IMG/VR virus record: IMGVR_UViG_3300006930_000015
Coordinates: 1-44,526 of that record
From: a virus
Lineage: Duplodnaviria > Caudoviricetes
Length of the DNA stretch: 44,526 nt
Strand: one strand, 5' to 3'
The notes beneath the pieces are model-generated. The model was not told where the DNA came from. It made no database searches and saw nothing but the letters and a program-made list of their open reading frames with translations. The position numbers were made by a program, and so were the translations under genes. This document shows positions 20,295-40,178 of this stretch, one piece after another; positions within the stretch are counted from its first letter, which is position 1; each line of letters begins with the position of its first letter.

Positions 20295-21132
20295 CCTGTA
20301 ATACTTTTAATCCTAATAAACGCCACATACGGCAAACAGAAGGTCTATCATCTATAACATATTTAACGTTATATTTGTTTCTAATATTATTATCAAACAG
20401 TTCTTTTTTTACAATATAGTCAGGTCGGTTATCGTTATCAGCTCTGGTGTATATCTCATCGTAATTTACTCCGTTGTCTTTTAGCCACTTCTCTGTAATG
20501 TCTTTATGTTCTTCACTACGTCCAGTTAGGATAATAACCCTATAGCCGTTATCGTAAGCCATGCCAACAATGTTACTAACAGCGTCATCAATAGTATCAC
20601 CCATAGCTTTGCTAGCATCATAAGGATTCCTATTACACATATGAGCAAGAGTGCCATCAACATCGACAATAATAGCTTCTTCAAGATTATCATCATATTT
20701 AATCTCCTCTTTAGTTAGTGGTTCGATGTATTTCCTATGCATATCTAGTATGGCTTCCATAGGTACGCTATTCGGTCGTTTACGGTTTCGCTTGATACAT
20801 TCCTCTAATGGTGTATCTATAAATAAAACACAAAAGTCTACATTATGTTCTCTGGCTATTTGCTCTAACCGTCTTTTATGTACTGGATTGAAGTTCGTAT
20901 CATCTACTACAACACTAAGTCTATTATTTAATGCGTCAATTATACGTAAATCTTCTATTTCTATAACATTTCTTTCATCTTTGAATGTATAATCTGGGAA
21001 ATATTCAGTCCTTATATCATCTTTATTTACACGCTCATATCCTTTTTCAACTAACTCTTTGGCATAAGTAGTTTTTCCGCTAGCGGGCAGTCCCTTAAGA
21101 AAGAGGATTTCCTGTTTTTTATTGCTTTCCAT
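20269..21132 (-). CDS. pseT: polynucleotide 5'-kinase / 3'-phosphatase (T4 PseT-like)
   Basis: P-loop GLPASGKTT, RVNKDDIR, VVDDTN; HAD domain DVDGT, TGR, K, IDDR. Confidence 0.9.
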   Translation of the reverse strand: MESNKKQEILFLKGLPASGKTTYAKELVEKGYERVNKDDIRTEYFPDYTFKDERNVIEIEDLRIIDALNNRLSVVVDDTNFNPVHKRRLEQIAREHNVDFCVLFIDTPLEECIKRNRKRPNSVPMEAILDMHRKYIEPLTKEEIKYDDNLEEAIIVDVDGTLAHMCNRNPYDASKAMGDTIDDAVSNIVGMAYDNGYRVIILTGRSEEHKDITEKWLKDNGVNYDEIYTRADNDNRPDYIVKKELFDNNIRNKYNVKYVIDDRPSVCRMWRLLGLKVLQVGDPHYEF

Positions 21133-21634
21133 ATAATTCTAATATCTCCTTAGCCCATTTTATCTTATCTTCCACTCTTTGTCCAGCTGGTTGATATGTA
21201 TTCCATAATTCAAGATTTACTGGACTATTGTCTAATTTATTACCATTTATATGATGAACATTCTCATTTTTTAATAAAGGTCTACCAATAATGTTACTCA
21301 TCATAAGTCTATGTTCACGTATATATCCAGTTTTCTTAGCATTAGGATTATTTGGAGCCCATATTTGTACATATCCATTATCATCAATAAATCTTCCACC
21401 CTTCCAAGATGGATTTGTTTGTCCTGTAAGATTTTTTAATCTTTCTACGTTTATGCATCCACAAGATTTCGTGCCTCCATTTGCTCTAGTTAGGTTTGAT
21501 GTAATAACATAAACTGTATTTCCGCAGTCGCATAAACATTCCCAATATATTCGATTATTTTTTCTATATGATAAATTTATAACTTTTAATTTTCCGTACC
21601 TATTACCAATAAGTGATTTATGTTTTCCTATCAT
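21119..21634 (-). CDS. free-standing HNH homing endonuclease
   Basis: GNRYGKL..WECLCDCG..TKSCGC module plus EHRL..ENVHHING.KLDN..NLEL (HNH_3). Confidence 0.88.
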   Translation of the reverse strand: MIGKHKSLIGNRYGKLKVINLSYRKNNRIYWECLCDCGNTVYVITSNLTRANGGTKSCGCINVERLKNLTGQTNPSWKGGRFIDDNGYVQIWAPNNPNAKKTGYIREHRLMMSNIIGRPLLKNENVHHINGNKLDNSPVNLELWNTYQPAGQRVEDKIKWAKEILELYGKQ

Positions 21635-21687
21635 ATTCTAGCGGGCAACCCTTTTAACATAAGTAGTTCTTGTTTATTCTTCGTCAT
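21631..21687 (-). pseudogene. orphaned original 5' end of pnk (18 codons)
   Basis: Encodes MTKNKQELLMLKGLPARI* versus Pnk start MESNKKQEILFLKGLPASGKT; its stop overlaps the HNH ATG. Confidence 0.8.
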
Positions 21688-24817: not shown

Positions 24818-24948
24818 TGTCGTTCATCTCCTCGTATGTCATATTTAATAATTCTATCTCGTAATCATCCATTGTCGTTCCTTTTTGTCGTTTATTTATA
24901 AACTTACAGCTATCAGTAGCTTGTAGGCGTTGCATGGACGCCTCGTTA

Positions 24949-25023
24949 TGGTCGCGGGAACCTGAATTTAACAGATACCTTCCAGACCCATTCCGGATGT
25001 GCTATCATTGCCACCATCCCGCG
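24949..25023 (-). tRNA. non-canonical tRNA-like RNA (Pro-UGG-like)
   Basis: Cloverleaf with CGCGGGA/TCCCGCG acceptor, A73-CCA and anticodon arm TCCGG-AATGGGT-CTGGA; has A33, D-loop TGATA and T-loop TTAAATT instead of conserved bases. Confidence 0.65.
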
Positions 25024-25064
25024 CAGCTGGAACTCCACTACTGATATGTGTAAACTTATAAATT

Positions 25065-25176
25065 TGGACCCAAAGGAAGGACTCGAACCTTCAACCTATG
25101 CGTTGCTTACAGATACAGGTTTCCCATATTATATCTGATTCTTTCATACATTGCTCTACCATTGAGCTACTTCGGG
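25065..25176 (-). ncRNA. tRNA-like RNA with ~37-nt insertion in the anticodon arm
   Basis: Canonical acceptor (CCCGAAG/CTTTGGG, T-CCA), D arm GCTC-AATGGTA-GAGC, T arm GAAGG-TTCGAGT-CCTTC; 54-nt anticodon domain containing an 8-bp helix and GG-GAAA-CC. Confidence 0.8.
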
Positions 25177-25179
25177 TTA

Positions 25180-25255
25180 TGGTCAGAGTCGTAGGAGTCG
25201 AACCTACAATCTCCCGCGTCCAAGGCGGGCGTTTCACCAACAAAACTTCACTCTG
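25180..25255 (-). tRNA. tRNA-Pro(UGG)
   Basis: 76 nt; CCCGC-CT-TGG-AC-GCGGG anticodon arm, GTAGG-TTCGACT-CCTAC, C1-G72, A73, encoded CCA; G7/G66 mismatch and A8. Confidence 0.85.
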
Positions 25256-25375
25256 ATATGCAGAGTCTCGCCTCTCTGCTCGTTGATTCATACTTATATT
25301 CAATATATTGTATGTGCCAGCGTCGCTACCGCCTTTGGTGTTACACGTGTTTTTACCGTACGTCTACGGTTGATA

Positions 25376-25421
25376 GTAGGTTTTCGGAATTGAACCGAAC
25401 ATTACCAGTTTCCAGACCTAC
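25376..25421 (-). ncRNA. minimal tRNA-like element (acceptor + D-loop + T arm, no anticodon arm)
   Basis: GTAGGT/ACCTAC stem, linker containing CTGGTAA, T arm TTCGG-TTCAATT-CCGAA. Confidence 0.55.
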
Positions 25422-25426
25422 ATATA

Positions 25427-25509
25427 TGGTGGAGATATAGTGAATCGAACACTAGTCCAGACAAGTACGCATTTACGTCTTAATCGCCTGTCAAAACCAT
25501 TTTATCCCC
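25427..25509 (-). ncRNA. mini-tmRNA: tRNA-like domain only
   Basis: 5' GGGGATAAAATGGTTTTGACAGG and 3' CTGGAC-TAGTG-TTCGATT-CACTA-TATCTCC-ACCA; G3-U70 pair; no D stem; P2 closed after 33 nt. Confidence 0.8.
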
Positions 25510-25585
25510 AAGTGTGGCTGTTAGTTCCTCATTTACGCCTCATTTAACTACGAGCCTCTCTATCGTAGCACCACTACTTTATGCA

Positions 25586-29392: not shown

Positions 29393-30598
29393 TTATCCAT
29401 TTATAATCACTTCACTAATATCTATTACTTCATGACTGAACTCTTCCCAAGGGCTTTCTCCTTTAACTAATTTATTTGGATTCAACCAGTAAATGTCAAG
29501 TCCTTCAACTTTCCATCCTAATTGTTCAAGTATGAAAGCATAGAAACTAAGTTGTAGCCAGTGCAAATCTAGCAATTCATTACCTAACTTACTCTTAAAT
29601 GGACTGTCGGATAGTTGATATTTCTTATCGTGTATATCACCATCTGTCTTAAAGTCTTGAATACGTACAATCTTTTTCTTGCGGTCAATAACTTTTATGC
29701 GGTCGATAGAACCACATAACTTAAAAGCATCTAACCATACAAATGTCTCTGTAATACGTTCGTAATCTCCACCGAATTGTTCGTGAAAACTCTCTACTAT
29801 GTACTTAATAAATGGATTTTTACTAAGTGCTTTATTTGGTCCGTAATATGTTGGTTTAGTTTTATATTCCTTCACCTCTTTTAGTTTGTCGCCTAATTGG
29901 TAGTTTTTATCAAAGTTCTCCATAGCTGCGTGTATTGCAGTTCCATATCCAGTAGACGCTTCATTGTTAAGTTTCCACATTGCGGATACTTCGTCAGCAG
30001 TAACTCCATACTTATCAACCATTCCTTGTAGCCTACCGTCTTTATCAAACGGTTGGTAGAATTGGTCAGGGAATTTACTACCACTCAAGTAACCTTCAAG
30101 ACGCTTATGACCATGCACAACGTTTAATTCGATTGATTCACCTGTGAGTGGAGATACGTATGTCTCTGTGTCTTTTTCTACTTCTGGTGTTTTACCAGTA
30201 AGAGATTTAAGTAAGTGTGATAATACTTTAACAGTATCACCTTTAGTTACTACTGGTTCTTTAGGTACATCTGCTAACTTATATTCAAGTGATATATTAA
30301 CACCATAGCTTTTACCTTGTCCACCTGTAATTGTACCGATAGATATATAAACACTCTCTCCAGCGTCTAACGCCTCGCTAATGTCTTTGTTTTTATCTTT
30401 TGCGATGTAACCGATAGGCAACCATTCATCATTTTTATATACATCAACTGCAACTGCTCGTGGGTCATATTCGTTATCTTTTTCCCTACGCACACGCAAT
30501 GGCTCTTTGCCACGTAATGTAGCGATTACTTCTTGCCGTCCTTCAAATGTTACTCCGACTAACTTGCTATAATATATAGCTGTATTTTTATCGTTCAT
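29393..30598 (-). CDS. HIRAN domain + PD-(D/E)XK exonuclease fusion
   Basis: N-term VGVTFEGRQ..RE.DNEYDPRAVAV..IGYI; C-term GTAIH, GSIDR, IQDFKT, LQLSFYA. Confidence 0.8.
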   Translation of the reverse strand: MNDKNTAIYYSKLVGVTFEGRQEVIATLRGKEPLRVRREKDNEYDPRAVAVDVYKNDEWLPIGYIAKDKNKDISEALDAGESVYISIGTITGGQGKSYGVNISLEYKLADVPKEPVVTKGDTVKVLSHLLKSLTGKTPEVEKDTETYVSPLTGESIELNVVHGHKRLEGYLSGSKFPDQFYQPFDKDGRLQGMVDKYGVTADEVSAMWKLNNEASTGYGTAIHAAMENFDKNYQLGDKLKEVKEYKTKPTYYGPNKALSKNPFIKYIVESFHEQFGGDYERITETFVWLDAFKLCGSIDRIKVIDRKKKIVRIQDFKTDGDIHDKKYQLSDSPFKSKLGNELLDLHWLQLSFYAFILEQLGWKVEGLDIYWLNPNKLVKGESPWEEFSHEVIDISEVIING

Positions 30599-30621
30599 TT
30601 AATCTCCTTTATTATGTATCT

Positions 30622-30685
30622 ATCTTATCACACATAATCGTAAATGTCAATACTTTTATGTAATAATGTGTTGTAGAATTTACAA
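30622..30685 (-). promoter_or_regulatory. sigma70 promoter with upstream palindromic box
   Basis: TTGACA(30650-30645)-N17-TAAGAT, extended TG; TTGTAGAATTTACAA at 30671-30685. Confidence 0.8.
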
Positions 30686-30700
30686 ATAACCAATATACTA

Positions 30701-30729
30701 TTGACAAACTAATTAAAGTATGTTATAGT
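30701..30729 (+). promoter_or_regulatory. rightward promoter for sRNA
   Basis: TTGACA-N17-TATAGT with TG; same class as 10534 and 39700. Confidence 0.8.
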
Positions 30730-30735
30730 TATTAG

Positions 30736-30856
30736 TGTAGAGGTTATTTTGTCGTTACTCTACAAACTTTCCCAGCAATGGGACTCCTTCCCTCCACAAA
30801 ACCCATTTAGTTGGGTTATAAACACTTCCCTTTCAACCCTAGGGAGGTGTTTTTTT
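30736..30856 (+). ncRNA. putative ~120-nt small RNA
   Basis: Bounded by promoter and terminator; three hairpins plus terminator; no ORF contained. Confidence 0.65.
30820..30856. terminator. bidirectional terminator
   Basis: AAACACTTCCCT / AGGGAGGTGTTT stem followed by T-tract; sits at the helicase stop. Confidence 0.8.
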
Positions 30857-32078
30857 ATTTTATGCTATGTGATTTATCACGCAACCTTGCGTCTATCTGT
30901 TGTGCCTCGTGTGAAACCATTAACGAACGTTGATTGATTCCCTTGAGATACAAATTATCTAGGTTCTTTACCCTCGATAGTCCGACATAGCCCATCCCAG
31001 ATACAAATGCCTTAGATAGGTCTATTTCTGCTGCATCTAATGTCATACCTTGGCTCTTATGCACTGTAATGGCGTAAGCAAGCCTTAATGGGATTTGTGT
31101 TATTGCTGCGATAGTTCGTTCACCTGACTTAAGTTCCCACTCATCAGGATATATAACTACTGGATATTTAAAATCCACAATAGGGAATCCTTCATCTGTA
31201 AAATCTATTACACTTCCTATACTACCATTTGCATACCTACCTTGTGGGTCATTCTTAACCGCCATAACCAAAGCTCCAAGCTTTAATTCAAGTATTTCAG
31301 GTGCTAATACATTCTTTTGTAAATTAACAATGGCTTCCCACTTACCTCGGCTAGTCCTCATATAAAAGTGGCTATTACCGCTTATCTTTTCTAGTTCTTT
31401 TACATTTATCTCATCTACATCTGAATTAGTTGTGTATAGTCTAGTAATGTCGCCAACTGGATTTATCTGCATACGTGATAGTAACCAGTCTAAATGTCTT
31501 TGCCTTAAAGTACCTAAACGCATTGCATTAAGTATTTCTTGCAACCTTAAATCTTCTGCCCTGTGCTGTTCCTCTAAATAACATACTGATAAATCTAACT
31601 TATCCCATACTTTAGAGTTAGTTATAAACTTACCGTTGCCACCTTGCTGCACTGGTGGGAGTTGAAAAAAATCACCACATAATATTACTTGAATACCTCC
31701 CATAGGCTCATCATTTTCTCTTATAAGTCGCATGGCTTCATCTAACATATCCAGGTTGTAATCGTGCATCATTGATACTTCATCTATAATTAGTATGTCA
31801 GTTTTAATTATGGCTTTTTTTCTTACTGCCGACATCATATAAATATAATCATCATGTAATTTACTGCCTAAACCTATACCAGACCAACTATGTAATGTTT
31901 GACCACCGATATGTGCTGCTGCAAGTCCTGTGGTTGCCGTAACTACTACTTTTTTACGTTTACTCTTTACTTTACTTATAAACTTATTTAACAAGTAACT
32001 CTTACCACTACCTGCTGGACCAGTGAGCATAATATTATCACCACGCAACATTATTTCTAATGCTTTATCTTGGTTCAT
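30855..32078 (-). CDS. PIF1-family SF1B helicase
   Basis: LTGPAGSGKS, TATTGLAA, LHSWSGIG, IIDEVSM, GDFFQLPPV, NGSIG, QIPLRLAYAITVHKSQGMTLD, YVGLSRV. Confidence 0.92.
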   Translation of the reverse strand: MNQDKALEIMLRGDNIMLTGPAGSGKSYLLNKFISKVKSKRKKVVVTATTGLAAAHIGGQTLHSWSGIGLGSKLHDDYIYMMSAVRKKAIIKTDILIIDEVSMMHDYNLDMLDEAMRLIRENDEPMGGIQVILCGDFFQLPPVQQGGNGKFITNSKVWDKLDLSVCYLEEQHRAEDLRLQEILNAMRLGTLRQRHLDWLLSRMQINPVGDITRLYTTNSDVDEINVKELEKISGNSHFYMRTSRGKWEAIVNLQKNVLAPEILELKLGALVMAVKNDPQGRYANGSIGSVIDFTDEGFPIVDFKYPVVIYPDEWELKSGERTIAAITQIPLRLAYAITVHKSQGMTLDAAEIDLSKAFVSGMGYVGLSRVKNLDNLYLKGINQRSLMVSHEAQQIDARLRDKSHSIK

Positions 32079-32120
32079 AAAATGAATCTCTCAAAAAATA
32101 GTATATTTTTCCTTGGTTCA

Positions 32121-32285
32121 CTAAAAATCTCCTTGCCAACTTTCAACTACGCCAACTAGAGCATTTACCATTCTTTGATATTGTTCTGTTATAATTTCAT
32201 CTTCAACAACACCAATTCTCATATTACCGTTGTCATCGTAGAAAATACCTGAATTAATTAGAGCTTCTTTAATATCATCTTCCAT
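32121..32285 (-). CDS. hypothetical protein (54 aa, not in ORF track)
   Basis: MEDDIKEALINSG...; AGGAG RBS, TAATG overlap. Confidence 0.5.
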   Translation of the reverse strand: MEDDIKEALINSGIFYDDNGNMRIGVVEDEIITEQYQRMVNALVGVVESWQGDF

Positions 32286-32572
32286 TATAATACTCCTGCT
32301 TTCTTTTTACGTCTCTTAGCTTGCCATGCTGCATTAGCCCATGGTGGTTTACCGACTGATTTTGTTTCAGGCAGTAATCTTCGTGCCTTTTCTTTTACTA
32401 TGTCAATGTAACCTGGTGTAGTCCTATCATCTTCTGATACTGCAAAGTGTATGACTTTAAGTCCTTCACTCTCAATTACCTCAGGAGGCTTTACAAGGTT
32501 CTCTAAGCCATGTATTACACCAAACACGTCAACTTGTCCATCTTTAACTAATTGTCGCTTTCCTCTTGGCAT
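32285..32572 (-). CDS. hypothetical protein
   Basis: Coupled ORF. Confidence 0.55.
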   Translation of the reverse strand: MPRGKRQLVKDGQVDVFGVIHGLENLVKPPEVIESEGLKVIHFAVSEDDRTTPGYIDIVKEKARRLLPETKSVGKPPWANAAWQAKRRKKKAGVL

Positions 32573-32751
32573 TCATACTCCATACACTCGTAAATTAAAT
32601 TTTCAATTAAACTATCAACTTTATTTTTATGTTTTTCCGTAAGTAGTTCCTTAAGCAAAACTAATCGTCCGATTACTATTTCATAATCTTTAGTTTCCAT
32701 TTTTACCACCAATTTTATTAATCTCATCCTTTCGGTACTTAACATAATCAT
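32548..32751 (-). CDS. hypothetical protein (start probably internal METKD)
   Basis: Packed ORF. Confidence 0.45.
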   Translation of the reverse strand: MIMLSTERMRLIKLVVKMETKDYEIVIGRLVLLKELLTEKHKNKVDSLIENLIYECMEYECQEESDN

Positions 32752-32932
32752 TGCTTAACATACCATCAGGGTCGCAGGCAGCAGCATAATCAGCCAGTCT
32801 TAGCTCGTCAAGACGTGCTTCATTAACAGTCTTTGATATTAGAGTGATTAGTTGTTGCTTAGTTGTTGCTGGTAACTTTACTGGAACTCCATGAAGAAAT
32901 TCGACTTCAATTTTATCTAGTTCTTTATCCAT
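32690..32932 (-). CDS. hypothetical protein
   Basis: EARLDEL motif; AAGGAG RBS. Confidence 0.55.
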   Translation of the reverse strand: MDKELDKIEVEFLHGVPVKLPATTKQQLITLISKTVNEARLDELRLADYAAACDPDGMLSNDYVKYRKDEINKIGGKNGN

Positions 32933-33183
32933 TACAACTCCTTAGCTTCTAATTTGTGCAGTCTATCTCTTATTGTCTGCTCGACTATATGCGATATTTC
33001 TCCACTGACCATCTGTAGCCTTGAATTAACCATATCAAGAGCCATCTTATCTTTGTCATCTCGTGGCATAAATTGTGGCTTAAATTCTACTTTTACATAA
33101 CAGTTTATATCGCCAAATATTTGGGTTTTCATATACTGTTTTATTTCACCAGATACTTCAAAGCTATTAAAAATATCATCCAT
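32932..33183 (-). CDS. hypothetical protein
   Basis: TAATG coupling, GGAGG RBS. Confidence 0.55.
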   Translation of the reverse strand: MDDIFNSFEVSGEIKQYMKTQIFGDINCYVKVEFKPQFMPRDDKDKMALDMVNSRLQMVSGEISHIVEQTIRDRLHKLEAKEL

Positions 33184-33578
33184 TACTTTCCTCCTCCATC
33201 AAAGTTACCGAGATTATTTTCGGTAGGCTGGTTAAGTTTATCTAGTTGGCGTTCAAGATTATTAATTTCATCTTCAATAGAATTTTGTAAATTAAACACA
33301 TATTCACTATTTGTTGTTTCGCCATCAATTTTTGTATAAATATGCTTTAATACACTAATTTTAGTCTCTAGCCGTTCTTTGGCAATTAACTGCTCAATTA
33401 AATCAACGTGCATATCAGCAGGGAAATGTGGTCCAGAACGAGCATATTGTATGATATGACGTAATTTCATATCATTCGTGGTGTAATTATTCAATAAGTC
33501 AATATGAGCAGACCATTCTTTGTCTTCTGGTGCTATGTTATTGAATTGGGTTTTTCCTATTGTATTATTACTAGACAT
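33183..33578 (-). CDS. hypothetical protein
   Basis: TAATG coupling. Confidence 0.55.
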   Translation of the reverse strand: MSSNNTIGKTQFNNIAPEDKEWSAHIDLLNNYTTNDMKLRHIIQYARSGPHFPADMHVDLIEQLIAKERLETKISVLKHIYTKIDGETTNSEYVFNLQNSIEDEINNLERQLDKLNQPTENNLGNFDGGGK

Positions 33579-33814
33579 TATTCAACCTTCTCTATTTCTA
33601 CTACGTAATTATCATAAAATATTTTTGCGTGTAAATAGCTTAATTTTGCAATAATACCGTAACTCTTAAACTTTTTTATATATCGTAATCTTTCATCTGA
33701 ACCAATCCACCAATTATCACTGCTGTTCCATGCTCTAATAACGATTAGACATTCTGACGTTTTACTCATTGCCATCATCCTGCAAGACAGCTTTTCTAGC
33801 TTCGTCCATAGCAA
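33578..33814 (-). CDS. hypothetical protein (start uncertain)
   Basis: Packed ORF. Confidence 0.45.
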   Translation of the reverse strand: MLWTKLEKLSCRMMAMSKTSECLIVIRAWNSSDNWWIGSDERLRYIKKFKSYGIIAKLSYLHAKIFYDNYVVEIEKVE

Positions 33815-34241
33815 TACATATTTCCTGGGATGTTTGCATACTTTTTTTATCGGAGTCTTTTATATGTAACCATTCAAGCTCTAGCTTGCGGGCTTTGGCT
33901 ACTAGCTCGGCAGTGGCTTGAGTGCGGTAATAATTGTTTGTGTTGTATAATATCTCGTAACGGTTCGCAAGATAAAAATCATGTAATTCTATAACATCGC
34001 CATTTTCATTTATTGACCAGAATACGCCTTGATTTTCTGCTCGCCAATGTTTAGGCTCTGGGGTATATGGTTCGATGAAACCTTTTTCTATCCATATAGG
34101 TCTAACATCATCATGTGTAAACGTTTCCCCAACTGCGTAATAATCGCCACTAAATCCTATATGTTCTTTCAATACTTTATAGTGTGTCATCTTTTTTATC
34201 ATCTCCAATTTGGTAGTTAGATTCAATTTTATCGCTTTCAT
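33762..34241 (-). CDS. hypothetical phage protein
   Basis: PKHWRA..FWSI..NYYRT..AE motif common in phage early proteins. Confidence 0.55.
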   Translation of the reverse strand: MKAIKLNLTTKLEMIKKMTHYKVLKEHIGFSGDYYAVGETFTHDDVRPIWIEKGFIEPYTPEPKHWRAENQGVFWSINENGDVIELHDFYLANRYEILYNTNNYYRTQATAELVAKARKLELEWLHIKDSDKKSMQTSQEICIAMDEARKAVLQDDGNE

Positions 34242-34384
34242 TTACTAACCTACCGCCAACTCCCCATCCTGATTCTTGCATAGCTATTAGTGCTTTTACC
34301 AATTCATCGTTCATTTTCTTTTACTCCAATCTATCTATAATGTCGTTAAATTCTTGCTCTTCTTGCTGGTCGGTATCACAAATG

Positions 34385-34612
34385 TTAAACATCGTTACCC
34401 CTCATTTTATCTTCTAACTCACTAACCCATTTTACTTCTTTATCACCTTCAATTTTCCATAAGTCTACAAAGTTATCACCATTTGGTGAACTTGCAATAC
34501 CTATATATGGAAAATGTGTAAAGTTTGTCAATGCTTGAAAAAATCTTTCATCTGTATCTTTTTGTAAGTACTTAATAAATGCTTCTTTAATTTTATTATC
34601 CCTCATTTTCAA
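34385..34612 (-). CDS. hypothetical protein
   Basis: F..YL...ERFFQAL motif. Confidence 0.55.
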   Translation of the reverse strand: MKMRDNKIKEAFIKYLQKDTDERFFQALTNFTHFPYIGIASSPNGDNFVDLWKIEGDKEVKWVSELEDKMRGNDV

Positions 34613-35006
34613 CCTCTGATTTTAATTTGTTAAGTAATTCAATTAGATTATCAATCTCATTAAACTTAATTTTACCAGTTTTACTACCATTACGTTGGAT
34701 TGATATATTTTCTTTTTTAGTGTTGGTAGTATGTTGTATAGATAATCCAGATTTTTTACCAATCTTTATAATTGTTTGCTTAACTACATCACATATGTTA
34801 TTGTTGTTTTCATCACAAAACATTTCATCAGTCCAATTATATATATCGCCTTCTATTGTATATCCGAAATGGTCTGCATTTTCAATTGTTACTACCTTGC
34901 CTCTTAAATCAACCATAGTATCAACGAATGATAAACCACCGTATACACTACCTTCAGTCATGTCATTACGCACTGTTACTTTATCACCTACTTTATATTT
35001 TGTCAT
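34596..35006 (-). CDS. hypothetical phage protein (SH3-like N-domain)
   Basis: KYKVGDKV.VR..GKVVTI..WTDEMF; AAGGAG RBS. Confidence 0.65.
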   Translation of the reverse strand: MTKYKVGDKVTVRNDMTEGSVYGGLSFVDTMVDLRGKVVTIENADHFGYTIEGDIYNWTDEMFCDENNNNICDVVKQTIIKIGKKSGLSIQHTTNTKKENISIQRNGSKTGKIKFNEIDNLIELLNKLKSEVENEG

Positions 35007-35035
35007 TGTCTTAACTCCTTATTATAATTATTTTT

Positions 35036-35357
35036 GGGCATAAAGGGGTTTTATCCCTCTGGTAAACCAGGGAACTAGACCAATTCAACCACATATTCTC
35101 CAAACGTACCGCAAGCTGCAACCAACACATCGCAGAACCTATACAGGTTATCCCGCCTTACGGTTATTTCAAAAGGTTTGCCTTTTACTACTTCGCTGGG
35201 TTATTTCACCAGATGGTGTACCAGAGTCCTCGTTGTCAACCCCTAGAGACAGAGCGAGAATTTTCCTTGAAGTACAGGACTTTGTTGTATGAGTTTTACA
35301 ATGGGTCATACTTACACCCACAATATGTTTGATGTCGTTAAGATATTTCCTAACGTT
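35036..35357 (-). ncRNA. putative large structured RNA or 5' leader
   Basis: ORF-free, visibly GC-richer, directly after a consensus promoter; many helices including a long-range 8-bp stem and 7-nt loop-loop complementarity. Confidence 0.65.
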
Positions 35358-35363
35358 ATGTCC

Positions 35364-35427
35364 ATCATATCACACTATTTCTAAATTGTCAATAGGTTTT
35401 TTAAATAAAATGTTGTGAAATAGTCAA
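35364..35427 (-). promoter_or_regulatory. sigma70 promoter with upstream palindromic box
   Basis: TTGACA(35392-35387)-N17-TATGAT, extended TG; TTGTGAAATAGTCAA at 35413-35427. Confidence 0.8.
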
Positions 35428-35431
35428 CACC

Positions 35432-35677
35432 CTATAATTCTGCTGCGATTTTATTCCAATCTCGGCTATTTAATACGTCTAACTCTACAATAAACACCTC
35501 ACCAATTTCGTCATTGTTATCTTTTGCGTAGTTATACACCAAAGATTTGATTTCTTTTCCTGTCTTACCTGACATTGTACTGTACAACTTACTTGAATTA
35601 TTAATTGTGTATAACACCTCGGCTATAATTTGCCTTCGCATATCTCTAATGTCCTCGTCAAAACTGCTCATTATCAC
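35432..35677 (-). CDS. hypothetical protein
   Basis: AAGGAG RBS. Confidence 0.55.
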   Translation of the reverse strand: MIMSSFDEDIRDMRRQIIAEVLYTINNSSKLYSTMSGKTGKEIKSLVYNYAKDNNDEIGEVFIVELDVLNSRDWNKIAAEL

Positions 35678-35879
35678 TCCTTGCTTCGTCCTCTAATTCT
35701 TTTTTAATTTGTTCTTGTTCTGTTACATAATCTGTTATATCTAAATACTCCATATTATCAAGTATATATTCTGCTCCAATTTCTTCTATAAGCTCAGATA
35801 TATCAACTCCTGTAATAATAGCTACACCATTTTCAATATCTACGTTGACCTTTTCTACACTAATTTCAAAACTAATCAT
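35658..35879 (-). CDS. hypothetical acidic protein
   Basis: Very acidic small early ORF. Confidence 0.55.
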   Translation of the reverse strand: MISFEISVEKVNVDIENGVAIITGVDISELIEEIGAEYILDNMEYLDITDYVTEQEQIKKELEDEARSDNEQF

Positions 35880-36125
35880 TTATTTAACCTCGCATTCATA
35901 CCATGCCGTATTCTTGTCTGAGAACTTCTCACAGGCGTTTTGTTGATATTCTGATACACCAGACGCTTTTATGTTATTGTACGCTCTCTGGGCTTCTAAA
36001 GTGCCAATAACGCCAATTGTTACTAATCCAATTACTAACGCAACCTTACCAATACAACCCCACTTAATAGATTTTAATTTACTAAACTTTTCTTTATCTA
36101 CTTTTTCAACTTTTTTCATATTCAT
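35880..36125 (-). CDS. small membrane protein
   Basis: Basic N-terminus plus one TM helix and Cys pair. Confidence 0.55.
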   Translation of the reverse strand: MNMKKVEKVDKEKFSKLKSIKWGCIGKVALVIGLVTIGVIGTLEAQRAYNNIKASGVSEYQQNACEKFSDKNTAWYECEVK

Positions 36126-38174: not shown

Positions 38175-38450
38175 TTATTTGTTCCCAATTAATTGTTTAT
38201 CCGTAAATGTATCTTCGATTTTAGTTAGTTGCATATAATCAATACGCCCTGCCCTAGTCATATGATATGTAATAGTTTTGCCAATCCAACTATCGCTATA
38301 ACCATAACACCAACTACAGTCAGAGCTGCTACGAGTTCTAATTAACTCACCGCTACTATCATCTAGTATTATCTTATAATTAGGATTGCCGTTCACACTG
38401 TTATTCAATCGCTCGACACTAACTAATTTTGCGAATTTCTGGTTTTTCAT
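38175..38450 (-). CDS. hypothetical phage protein
   Basis: ERLNNSVNGNP motif; AAGGGG RBS. Confidence 0.6.
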   Translation of the reverse strand: MKNQKFAKLVSVERLNNSVNGNPNYKIILDDSSGELIRTRSSSDCSWCYGYSDSWIGKTITYHMTRAGRIDYMQLTKIEDTFTDKQLIGNK

Positions 38451-38708
38451 ATTATTCCCCTTTACTTATTATTTTATAAAAATCGTCGATAATCTCTTAT
38501 CTATATCTATTGTATCAAAATCCTTGCTATTGTCAACTAGTCTATTACCTCATATTCTATATTATTATAATCTAAATAGTCACCATAACAACAACCATCA
38601 TCGCTTATAATGTCATTATATTCTTGTTTAGTGATATATAACATTTTCTTACTCCTGCTTATTATTAATTGCTATGAGTTAGTTTGTATCGCCTAATCTC
38701 ATAATACA

Positions 38709-38773
38709 ATCATATAAAACTAGCCTATATAATGCAATAGTTTTTAGCTATTTTATCGTTGTATTATTTACAA
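38709..38773 (-). promoter_or_regulatory. sigma70 promoter with upstream palindromic box
   Basis: TTGCAT-N17-TATGAT; TTGTATTATTTACAA at 38759-38773. Confidence 0.65.
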
Positions 38774-38797
38774 TAAGCATAATGCTAGTGTAATAAT

Positions 38798-38825
38798 AAA
38801 AATACCCCCGTATATAACAGGGGTA
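38798..38825 (-). terminator. Rho-independent terminator
   Basis: TACCCCTGT-TATAT-ACGGGGGTA followed by TTTTT on the minus strand. Confidence 0.65.
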
Positions 38826-38995
38826 AAAAATCGGCGTATACTCTCAGTTTTGGCTAGTGTAACCTAAACAGTATATAATAAAGCTAACATATATAATACT
38901 ATAATAGCTAATATAGCTTGTAGTATAGGTTTAATAGTATACTTATAAGTATTATATATCATTGACTGTTTGTTGAAGTATTTTGTTTTCATCTG

Positions 38996-39211
38996 TTATA
39001 ACTCCGTTACAGTGTAGTGTTTATCTGTTGTTATATCATATTGTACTGGTGATATTGTAACATAATAACCTATATTAGCACTATGATGTAAATCATAATA
39101 TTTACCCCTGTTAAGTTTAATCCTAGTAATACCCTGTAGATATAAATTAGCTAATATTGATTGATTGTTAAGGTACTTTTTACCGTATATTTTTGTCTGG
39201 ATAATATTCAT
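38996..39211 (-). CDS. hypothetical protein (first early gene)
   Basis: AGGA RBS; first minus-strand ORF beside the divergent region. Confidence 0.45.
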   Translation of the reverse strand: MNIIQTKIYGKKYLNNQSILANLYLQGITRIKLNRGKYYDLHHSANIGYYVTISPVQYDITTDKHYTVTEL

Positions 39212-39442
39212 ATTATTGTATCCTGTTTAATTTATTATATTACTAGCTTATTATATATACGCAGGTAATATAAGTCTTGTAATTATTGATATTTATGTTA
39301 TAATATCACTGTAACAGGGGTCAGACATTGACATATTGCAATAAGCATGTGATAATATTGTACATTTGCCCACCTCTGTTAGGGTGTCAGAAAATACGGG
39401 GTTTTATAAAAGTTTTGGCTATTCGTGTTATTAGTGCTATTG

Positions 39443-39590
39443 TTGTATATATTACAATGATATATGCACATACTATGTTATGTTGTATTGTTTACAATGT
39501 TGTTATTTTGTGTATGTTTTGTTGTTATTATTACAATGAGGGAGGGGTGGGGGAGGCTACAGTTTGAGAGTTGTGTTGTAATTATTACTA
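39443..39590. repeat. cluster of TTGTA-N5-TACAA palindromes
   Basis: Copies at 39443-39457, 39483-39497, 39522-39536 (1 mismatch), 39576-39590 (1 mismatch). Confidence 0.7.
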
Positions 39591-39699
39591 CTATATTTTA
39601 TATGACCAAAATATTGACACCATAAAAATCACAAAGGTATGGATATATTACATGTAAGTTACATAGTTGTAACAAAATCAATAATTTTTATAAAAAGTA

Positions 39700-39728
39700 T
39701 TGACATTTTAAATAAAGTATGATATAGT
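39700..39728 (+). promoter_or_regulatory. promoter of the packaging/structural arm
   Basis: TTGACA-N17-TATAGT with TG; ATG of terS follows within a few nt, suggesting a leaderless transcript. Confidence 0.8.
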
Positions 39729-39734
39729 TGTAAT

Positions 39735-40178
39735 ATGAGTAAAAAACAAGGCAAAAAATTTAGCAACAGGAGTGTAAAACCTATACAGTCTGACGGTACA
39801 GTAGCTCAAGCCAACCAATGGACTGCCACAGAGCAACAGTTAAACTGGTTACGTTATTACATGGACCCTAAAGAAGAAGAGACATATGCAAACTCATATC
39901 AATCGGCAATAAAGGCTGGATATAGTGAGTCATATGCAAAGAATATAATGAGTAATGCAGTTGCGCTACAATGGGTAAAGAGTGCAAAGAGTATTATGAG
40001 AAGTATGAATACGGAGCATCTTAAGAATGTATTAGAAGAAATTGCACTAGGTAAGTATTCAAAAGATGCAGATAAGATATCGGCGGTCAAGGCACTCGGT
40101 ATGGAACAAGGTATGTTCGTACAGAAACAAATAACAGCTCATGTTGGTATCGAGCAGGCTTTAAGTGAGTTAGAATAA
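39735..40178 (+). CDS. terS: terminase small subunit
   Basis: HTH-like YANSYQSAIKAGYSESYA, DKISAVKALG..GMF; upstream of terL. Confidence 0.8.
   Translation: MSKKQGKKFSNRSVKPIQSDGTVAQANQWTATEQQLNWLRYYMDPKEEETYANSYQSAIKAGYSESYAKNIMSNAVALQWVKSAKSIMRSMNTEHLKNVLEEIALGKYSKDADKISAVKALGMEQGMFVQKQITAHVGIEQALSELE

Follow-up and report, generated by a model that had tools for sequence, protein, structure and literature searches.

Results

A gene-free stretch follows a predicted promoter in a tailed phage genome

The virus record IMGVR_UViG_3300006930_000015, whose full 44,526 bases were analysed here and are referred to as the window, belongs to a tailed phage. Based on Pfam and PHROG matches, its plus strand carries capsid, terminase and P22/SU10-like portal genes, and its minus strand carries small genes of unknown function along with genes for a PIF1-like helicase, nucleases, a lytic transglycosylase, an RNA ligase and a polynucleotide kinase. 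The source names among homologues of the capsid, the transglycosylase (SLT) or the helicase did not supply a host.

On the minus strand, a stretch of about 330 nt lies between three small genes and the next gene downstream (Table 1). This stretch lies behind a predicted promoter, TTGACA-17-TATGAT with TG, which matches the consensus at 11 of 12 positions and is one of a set of look-alikes in this genome; its sister promoters have leaders of only about 25 nt. As the first-pass annotation had proposed, the stretch behind this promoter is free of genes: no sense ORF of at least 60 aa lies between the promoter and the Shine-Dalgarno-like site (SD), the longest sense ATG frame measures 46 aa, and the longest frames across the RNA in homologues reach 7-33 aa. 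The GC content of the RNA core is 0.42-0.47 compared to 0.35 for the window. The conserved unit extends beyond the end originally assigned to it, up to 35029, and in the first sequence group the SD of the next gene follows 6-14 nt beyond the conserved tail. No terminator-like site was found on the strand of the RNA within 30000-35400 of the window, nor in G007. The gene run behind the RNA comprises roughly 4.5 kb and is devoid of metabolic genes as judged by Pfam and PHROG.

Table 1 Features of the RNA locus in the window, with the helices of the fold model.
Feature	Position	Strand	Remark
Structured non-coding RNA, ~330 nt	35029..35357	-	Ends predicted from promoter spacing and the limit of homology
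Sigma-70-type promoter, extended -10 (predicted)	35364..35392	-	Equivalent position in relatives
5' hairpin	35336..35355	-	Differs between lineages
P1 closing helix, 35328-35322 with 35097-35091	35091..35328	-	4 of 7 pairs covary
H-type pseudoknot right behind P1	35287..35321	-	
P3, 35274-35269 with 35194-35189	35189..35274	-	9 bp with shifted register in both homologue subfamilies
P4 hairpin with 3x1 internal loop; apical loop 35243-35238 with 3' tail 35050-35045	35228..35259	-	
8-bp long-range pseudoknot helix, 35226-35219 with 35064-35057	35057..35226	-	2 of 8 pairs covary in 9 sequences
P6 tetraloop hairpin	35207..35218	-	Abuts the long-range strand
P7/P8 domain, 35175-35172 with 35101-35098 and 35164-35157 with 35115-35108	35098..35175	-	
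Competing local hairpin, 35075-35067 with 35062-35053	35053..35075	-	Mutually exclusive with the long-range helix
A-rich conserved tail (35035-35029) ahead of Shine-Dalgarno-like site (35020-35015)	35015..35035	-	Without terminator
First downstream gene, 136 aa, phrog_7488	34596..35006	-	Not the same gene across carriers
Three small upstream genes	35432..36125	-	Markers of the syntenic slot

Several features elsewhere in the genome were noted. tRNA-like genes occur at about 25.0-25.5 kb of the window, some 9.5 kb from the structured RNA. The array lies behind the transglycosylase gene (24890-25585, minus strand) and contains a tRNA-Pro(TGG) at 25180-25255, a tRNA-like gene with a 48-nt anticodon arm at 25068-25176 and additional mini genes bearing T-arms. 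A tag-less 83-nt tmRNA-like gene at 25427-25509 (minus strand) consists of a tRNA-like domain closed by a short hairpin; its counterparts score as tmRNA in G007, G014, G032 and G033 and give an HMM match in G009-G012, and the window's own copy is absent from the Rfam match list. About 1.3 kb of low-coding DNA with divergent promoters (38450-39735), located ahead of the small terminase gene, is a candidate origin or genome-end region; it contains a terminator-like hairpin at 38803-38825 and, near 39540-39555, a purine/pyrimidine tract that is also present in G005. Between the RNA ligase and kinase genes, an HNH gene (21119-21634) is flanked by similar short elements (21080-21123 and 21638-21681) and is possibly a mobile insertion.

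Full-length homologues form two subfamilies

Capsid-related phages (51 loci) have a 3' motif in common. Three pattern scans for conserved motifs yielded 42, 116 and 34 loci, and HMM searches of these found full-length homologues in eight distinct phage records, which fall into subfamily A (L321, L346) and subfamily B (L356, L383, L394, L467, L473, L494). One member of each subfamily was compared to the window, giving identities of 67% and 71%. In the homologues inspected, the promoter and the upstream genes are the same as in the window and the downstream gene is not. G032, a complete subfamily B record with a capsid of the window's family, is 0.72 identical in the RNA core, compared to 0.60 in the upstream gene and 0.69 in the helicase.

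Close relatives were also present on wastewater contigs, in which identity to the window reaches 95-99% over the RNA but only about 83% over one flanking gene, and another gene stands downstream. The underlying sequence runs are probably DNA and carry no information on expression; contigs ending at 35358 were considered as evidence of a transcription start and rejected, as branching of the assembly graph explains them. The ten listed substitutions inside the RNA are an independent check on the fold model described below, in which 172 of 322 positions are paired: seven of them fall on unpaired positions and three preserve a pair. One wastewater contig tracks the 5' part of the RNA and diverges at window position 35312. 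This site belongs to the first loop of the H-type pseudoknot, which contains an insertion in subfamily A as well. A second contig keeps the promoter and upstream genes and continues with a different sequence from 35364 on, which is possibly a further subtype.

Other routes did not extend the family. blastn retrieved no homologue from 50,697 phage records or 72,556 plasmids. Patterns based on a twin 10-mer gave no homologue among the at least 120 loci listed from viral contigs and none among 120 loci from metagenomes, where unrelated repeats dominated; a 17-mer search returned two loci, neither of them homologous, and a motif scan of GTDB genomes nine, none of them full-length. BLAST of 27 of 50 capsid-related records gave nothing beyond one promoter match and one 3'-end match, and neither of the two relatives found through the downstream gene carries the RNA. 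A 368-nt inter-tRNA spacer with two 9-mer copies (L004/L112) was rejected as a member since it fails both the HMM and the topology descriptor. This non-coding spacer, located between two tRNA genes (L004:1329-1696, minus strand), bears two T-loop-like 9-mers, has no Rfam match and is possibly another large RNA outside this family.

Comparative support for a fold with three pseudoknots

A fold model of 67 pairs in 12 helices, including three pseudoknots, was built by hand on an alignment of the window and its eight homologues. All 601 aligned cells are paired and 19 pairs show two-sided changes, in an alignment that comprises only three clusters and with helices that were picked by eye from the same sequences. 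None of 500 shuffles matched the model in pairing and two-sided changes, and slid controls paired at 33-47%. Single-sequence folding energy is by itself weak evidence for structure: its advantage over chance is small (z -1.87), and 5 of 100 shuffles did equally well, in a calculation blind to pseudoknots.

From the 5' end, the predicted order is a variable hairpin, P1, an immediate H-type pseudoknot, the P3 domain, the P7/P8 domain, the closure of P1 and a 3' tail. P3 encloses the P4 hairpin with its 3x1 internal loop, an 8-nt strand and the P6 tetraloop hairpin. Beyond P1, the tail continues for about 60 nt and provides one strand of both long-range helices: it pairs first with the 8-nt strand and then, six bases on, with the P4 loop, before the A-rich stretch and the SD follow. 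The P7/P8 domain encloses hairpins at 35148-35137 and 35135-35116 and contains one T-loop-like motif at 35172-35164. Three extra helices (35320-35314 with the 3' end, 35336-35332 with 35128-35124, and 35154-35150 with 35075-35071) are paired in nearly all sequences, yet show zero two-sided changes and are kept as candidates only.

The first-pass annotation had sketched several of these elements from a single sequence, and every string that it listed is present where it had been placed. Its H-type pseudoknot is backed by the homologues, with an invariant first stem (35321-35317 with 35305-35301) and a second stem (35311-35306 with 35292-35287) in which two of six pairs covary. Its 8-bp long-range stem likewise covaries, as does the hairpin ACCT-GTAT-AGGT at 35148-35137 (three of four pairs). 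The proposed contact of loop AGGGGTT with AACCCCT holds as a pairing between the P4 loop and the tail (two of six pairs covary); the 3' terminal hairpin in which the second strand had been placed is not predicted by the consensus fold, so that the contact would be loop-to-tail rather than loop-to-loop. Two hairpins gave way to P3, P7 and P8 in the model: AAAAGG-CAAA-CCTTTT at 35186-35171 keeps just two to three of its six pairs in homologues, and the bases of a 2-bp mini hairpin at 35163-35156 belong to an 8-bp helix that is paired in all nine sequences. The 5' hairpin described at 35355-35336 is replaced by other hairpins in the homologues.

The topology recurs at background sequence identity

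We then turned to the syntenic slot in 17 related records. Seven records with 61-68% capsid identity span the region. In each of them, the syntenic promoter lies ahead of the helicase block, and some 340-420 nt of non-coding leader come directly behind it. These leaders form three groups that are mutually unrelated by HMM, namely G001, G007/G009/G014 and G010/G011/G012. A topology descriptor based on the group of the window fitted G001 unchanged; G007, G009 and G014 fitted after the minimum length of P6 had been lowered from 4 to 3 bp, a step taken once the second group had failed. In its relaxed form the descriptor matched all seven lineages tested as members and none of 7000 dinucleotide shuffles, and when it was run over the window and the DNA of the related phages, the member loci came up together with two stray hits resembling chance.

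G007, G009 and G014 share the same helix set, with 97.6% of 207 cells paired, 16 two-sided changes and no match among 500 shuffles in an alignment of three sequences; the second stem of their H-type pseudoknot is weak (3-5 bp by eye). In G001, the second partner of the tail is the loop of another hairpin. Identity between groups is 0.51-0.60, compared to 0.55 for a random baseline of shuffled sequence; all seven lineages nevertheless agree at four of the eight base pairs that make up the long-range helix. As the topology is kept at background identity, shape rather than sequence appears to be conserved. Together, 13 records carry the fold, i.e. the window, eight found by sequence and four found by topology.

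The descriptor did not fit G010-G012, which have a different folded RNA in the same slot; on this comparison, the slot is shared between the window-type fold and an unrelated one. This second RNA of about 350 nt (L514:13484-13845, plus strand; L519:10365-10720, plus strand; L521:10007-10369, minus strand) has a variable 5' domain and a nearly invariant 3' half, and the piece tested has no Rfam match. In phages with 45-50% capsid identity, we also observed a structured non-coding element of about 540 nt upstream of the small terminase gene (L273:1545-2085, plus strand; L526; L529; L530; L532:5180-5745, plus strand; L537/L535), with two subfamilies, a long pseudoknot that covaries by eye and no Rfam match. 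It has 3' motifs in common with the RNA (E about 0.002-0.1) and did not fit the descriptor.

The 3' tail may adopt two states

Instead of the long-range helix, its 3' strand can close a local hairpin in all seven lineages. The duplex energy of this hairpin beats shuffles of the local segment in five of the seven (6-50 of 1000 as good) and is not above chance in the other two (123 and 226 of 1000); by the number of paired bases, the hairpin is at chance level (54-198 of 300 shuffles). The calculated energies of the two states are similar, at -9 to -15 kcal/mol for the local and -11 to -13.5 kcal/mol for the long-range pairing. We take this as a hint, and no more than that, of a possible folding switch or of an exchange of tails between copies.

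Relation to known RNA families

The first-pass annotation had proposed a novel large structured RNA and named a search of Rfam among its checks. Rfam 15, which includes raiA, ROOL, GOLLD, RNase P, tmRNA, group I/II introns and riboswitches, gave no covariance-model match over the RNA in the window (E<=1), in L321/L346 (E<=5), in pieces of G001/G007/G010/G014, or in pieces of G032/G033 (E<=0.5). This, together with covariation in two independent sequence groups, supports the proposal. By the tests run, the RNA is a member of none of these families, with raiA being the nearest in architecture and ROOL and GOLLD the nearest in habitat and kind.

raiA is described as having a bent hairpin and two adjacent pseudoknots made by one strand (PMC12968392). 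The phage RNA has this layout in the same order, with P4 and its 3x1 loop, the loop-tail helix and the adjacent 8-bp helix all predicted and covarying, which we regard as an analogy of layout only. In raiA, P1 is formed between the two ends of the molecule and encloses the pseudoknot strand, whereas here that strand is the tail beyond P1. The phage RNA has an additional H-type pseudoknot, and it is phage-borne and loses sequence identity, whereas raiA is chromosomal with a conserved core sequence. ROOL and GOLLD are likewise large multi-pseudoknot RNAs of phages and prophages with unknown function, and a ROOL contact first taken as intramolecular turned out to be intermolecular within a cage (10.1101/2024.12.08.627333). 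However, these RNAs measure about 660 and over 800 nt, compared to 330-420 nt here, and are found beside tRNA genes; the phage RNA follows an early-type promoter of its own, and the nearest tRNA-like gene is about 9.5 kb away in the window and at least 6 kb away in G007 and G014.

A further parallel is the prohead RNA of the phi29 family. It, too, is encoded by a phage; it is transcribed early, its secondary structure is better conserved than its sequence, and loops of separate copies pair with each other. The RNA described here is twice as long and has no Rfam match, and the window phage has a terminase and a P22-like portal, with the RNA in the early block on the opposite strand.

T-loop features also occur in T-box RNAs and the RNase P specificity domain, and the phage RNA shares with these one T-loop-like motif and a pseudoknot of 8 bp in which an internal strand meets the 3' region. 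The first-pass annotation had seen a 10-mer twice and considered paired T-loops that bind tRNA elbows. The copy at 35171-35162 is kept, whereas the one at 35208-35199 is missing in all eight homologues, so a second conserved T-loop, and with it the two interdigitated T-loops of T-box and RNase P, is lacking, as are the conserved regions of RNase P and an Rfam match. The complementarity of the RNA to the tRNA-like array, about 9.5 kb away, is at chance, and the proposed link to the tRNA elbow finds no support. More broadly, the RNA could be a partner of the phage tRNA-like genes, either as a paired-T-loop elbow binder or by supplying the tag-less tmRNA-like RNA with a message domain on a second molecule. 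In tmRNA, P2 is followed by PK1, which the succession of P1 and an immediate H-type pseudoknot recalls, and tag-less tmRNA-like genes and tRNAs are present in the carriers checked. Such co-occurrence would, however, also result from shared ancestry alone; behind the pseudoknot, three-frame translations of six lineages contain neither a shared frame nor a tag of the Ala-Ala type; in all four genomes compared, the RNA is complementary to the tmRNA-like gene at chance level only; and the T-loop-like motif is single. A partnership of this kind is scarcely probable.

We consider it very unlikely, too, that the RNA processes itself, as a ribozyme by which the downstream mRNA would be cut or capped at its 5' end. 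In favour of this reading, a core with pseudoknots precedes an mRNA, the junction can pair in alternative ways, and some base pairs of the long-range helix are identical throughout; lariat-capping ribozymes use flanking conformational switches (PMC4167309), to which the tail could correspond. Unlike GIR1, to which this likeness applies, the phage RNA lacks a group I-like core and a eukaryotic intron context, and no Rfam ribozyme or intron matches it. Junction sequences differ between groups, and identity between lineages at the random baseline argues against an extended invariant core.

A literature search found no matching description of the RNA. For two large published screens for candidate structured RNAs of viruses and microbiomes (PMC10690425, PMC8040213), a search of supplementary material other than the alignment archives gave no motif match; pieces of the family may already be listed in those archives. 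Since the stretch is free of genes, its fold is kept through sequence drift and Rfam has no match, it likely represents a new class of large phage RNA.

Discussion

Comparison of the homologous and syntenic sequences supports the helices, the three pseudoknots, a topology held at background identity and a slot shared with an unrelated fold. From these we infer transcription, release as a free RNA, stability and a role as decoy. The RNA would likely be transcribed from an early phage promoter and trimmed off the downstream mRNA at the A-rich tail. Its tail may start out as a local hairpin before it engages in the two consecutive long-range helices, either within one molecule or swapped between copies, which would give rise to oligomers. 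The 5' hairpin and the knotted 3' end would protect a compact, nuclease-resistant RNA that works in trans and is recognised by its shape, as a decoy or scaffold; host RNA-binding or RNA-cutting defence proteins would be its likeliest targets. The genes for RNA ligase, polynucleotide kinase, tRNAs and the tag-less tmRNA-like RNA fit such a conflict at the RNA level, as context and not as proof, and a tag-less phage tmRNA has been reported as an inhibitor of the host tmRNA (PMC11915505). A stable early RNA acting in trans, comparable to raiA, ROOL and GOLLD, is the account towards which we lean, tentatively and at somewhat short of an even chance. The downstream genes vary between carriers and the strand of the RNA is free of terminator-like sites, both in favour of action in trans; the lack of a terminator before the next gene also speaks against it and would equally fit a leader.

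Accordingly, a cis-acting leader of the early operon is a strong rival, since nothing separates the RNA from the next gene, although we consider it rather unlikely overall. The fold would stay on the mRNA, and the two-state tail would set the stability, processing or ribosome loading of the message. The RNA always lies directly between the promoter and the SD, the local and long-range pairings of the tail compete at similar energies, and in the unrelated fold of the slot, too, the 3' strand can, as judged by eye, pair either locally or at long range. On the other hand, the SD lies outside both tail states, the first genes differ between carriers, the sister promoters have far shorter leaders, and 330-400 nt with three pseudoknots would be large for such a job. 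A regulatory role as riboswitch or as put/EAR-like antitermination element appears highly improbable to us. The position close to the promoter, ahead of the gene run, and the two tail states are compatible with it, but there is neither a terminator-like site downstream on that strand nor an invariant pocket nor a metabolic gene to control. The SD is left unpaired by the consensus fold and no conserved anti-SD pairing was seen, so an expression platform of either kind, terminator or anti-SD, is missing. The ribozyme or riboswitch suggested by the first-pass annotation thus finds no support in the comparative data.

A bolder version of action in trans would make the locus a swappable slot for RNA effectors that a phage clade maintains behind a single early promoter, holding at least two unrelated ornate folds. 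Here the tail would flip from the local hairpin to the double pseudoknot, possibly between copies, and so build a protein-free particle that neutralises a host RNA-targeting defence, with an arms race driving the turnover of sequence. We regard this version as unlikely.

Taken together, the element is real and seems to represent a class of ornate phage RNA that has not been catalogued so far, and the comparison of sequences supports its fold well. Few large ornate RNAs of bacteria and phages are known, and their jobs are mostly unsolved. At 330-420 nt, the family is small enough for probing and cryo-EM and offers natural variants at background identity, and a slot common to two unrelated folds would permit a direct test of interchangeability, of action in cis or in trans and of oligomerisation. 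Screens based on sequence and on Rfam miss this RNA class, which promoter synteny reveals.
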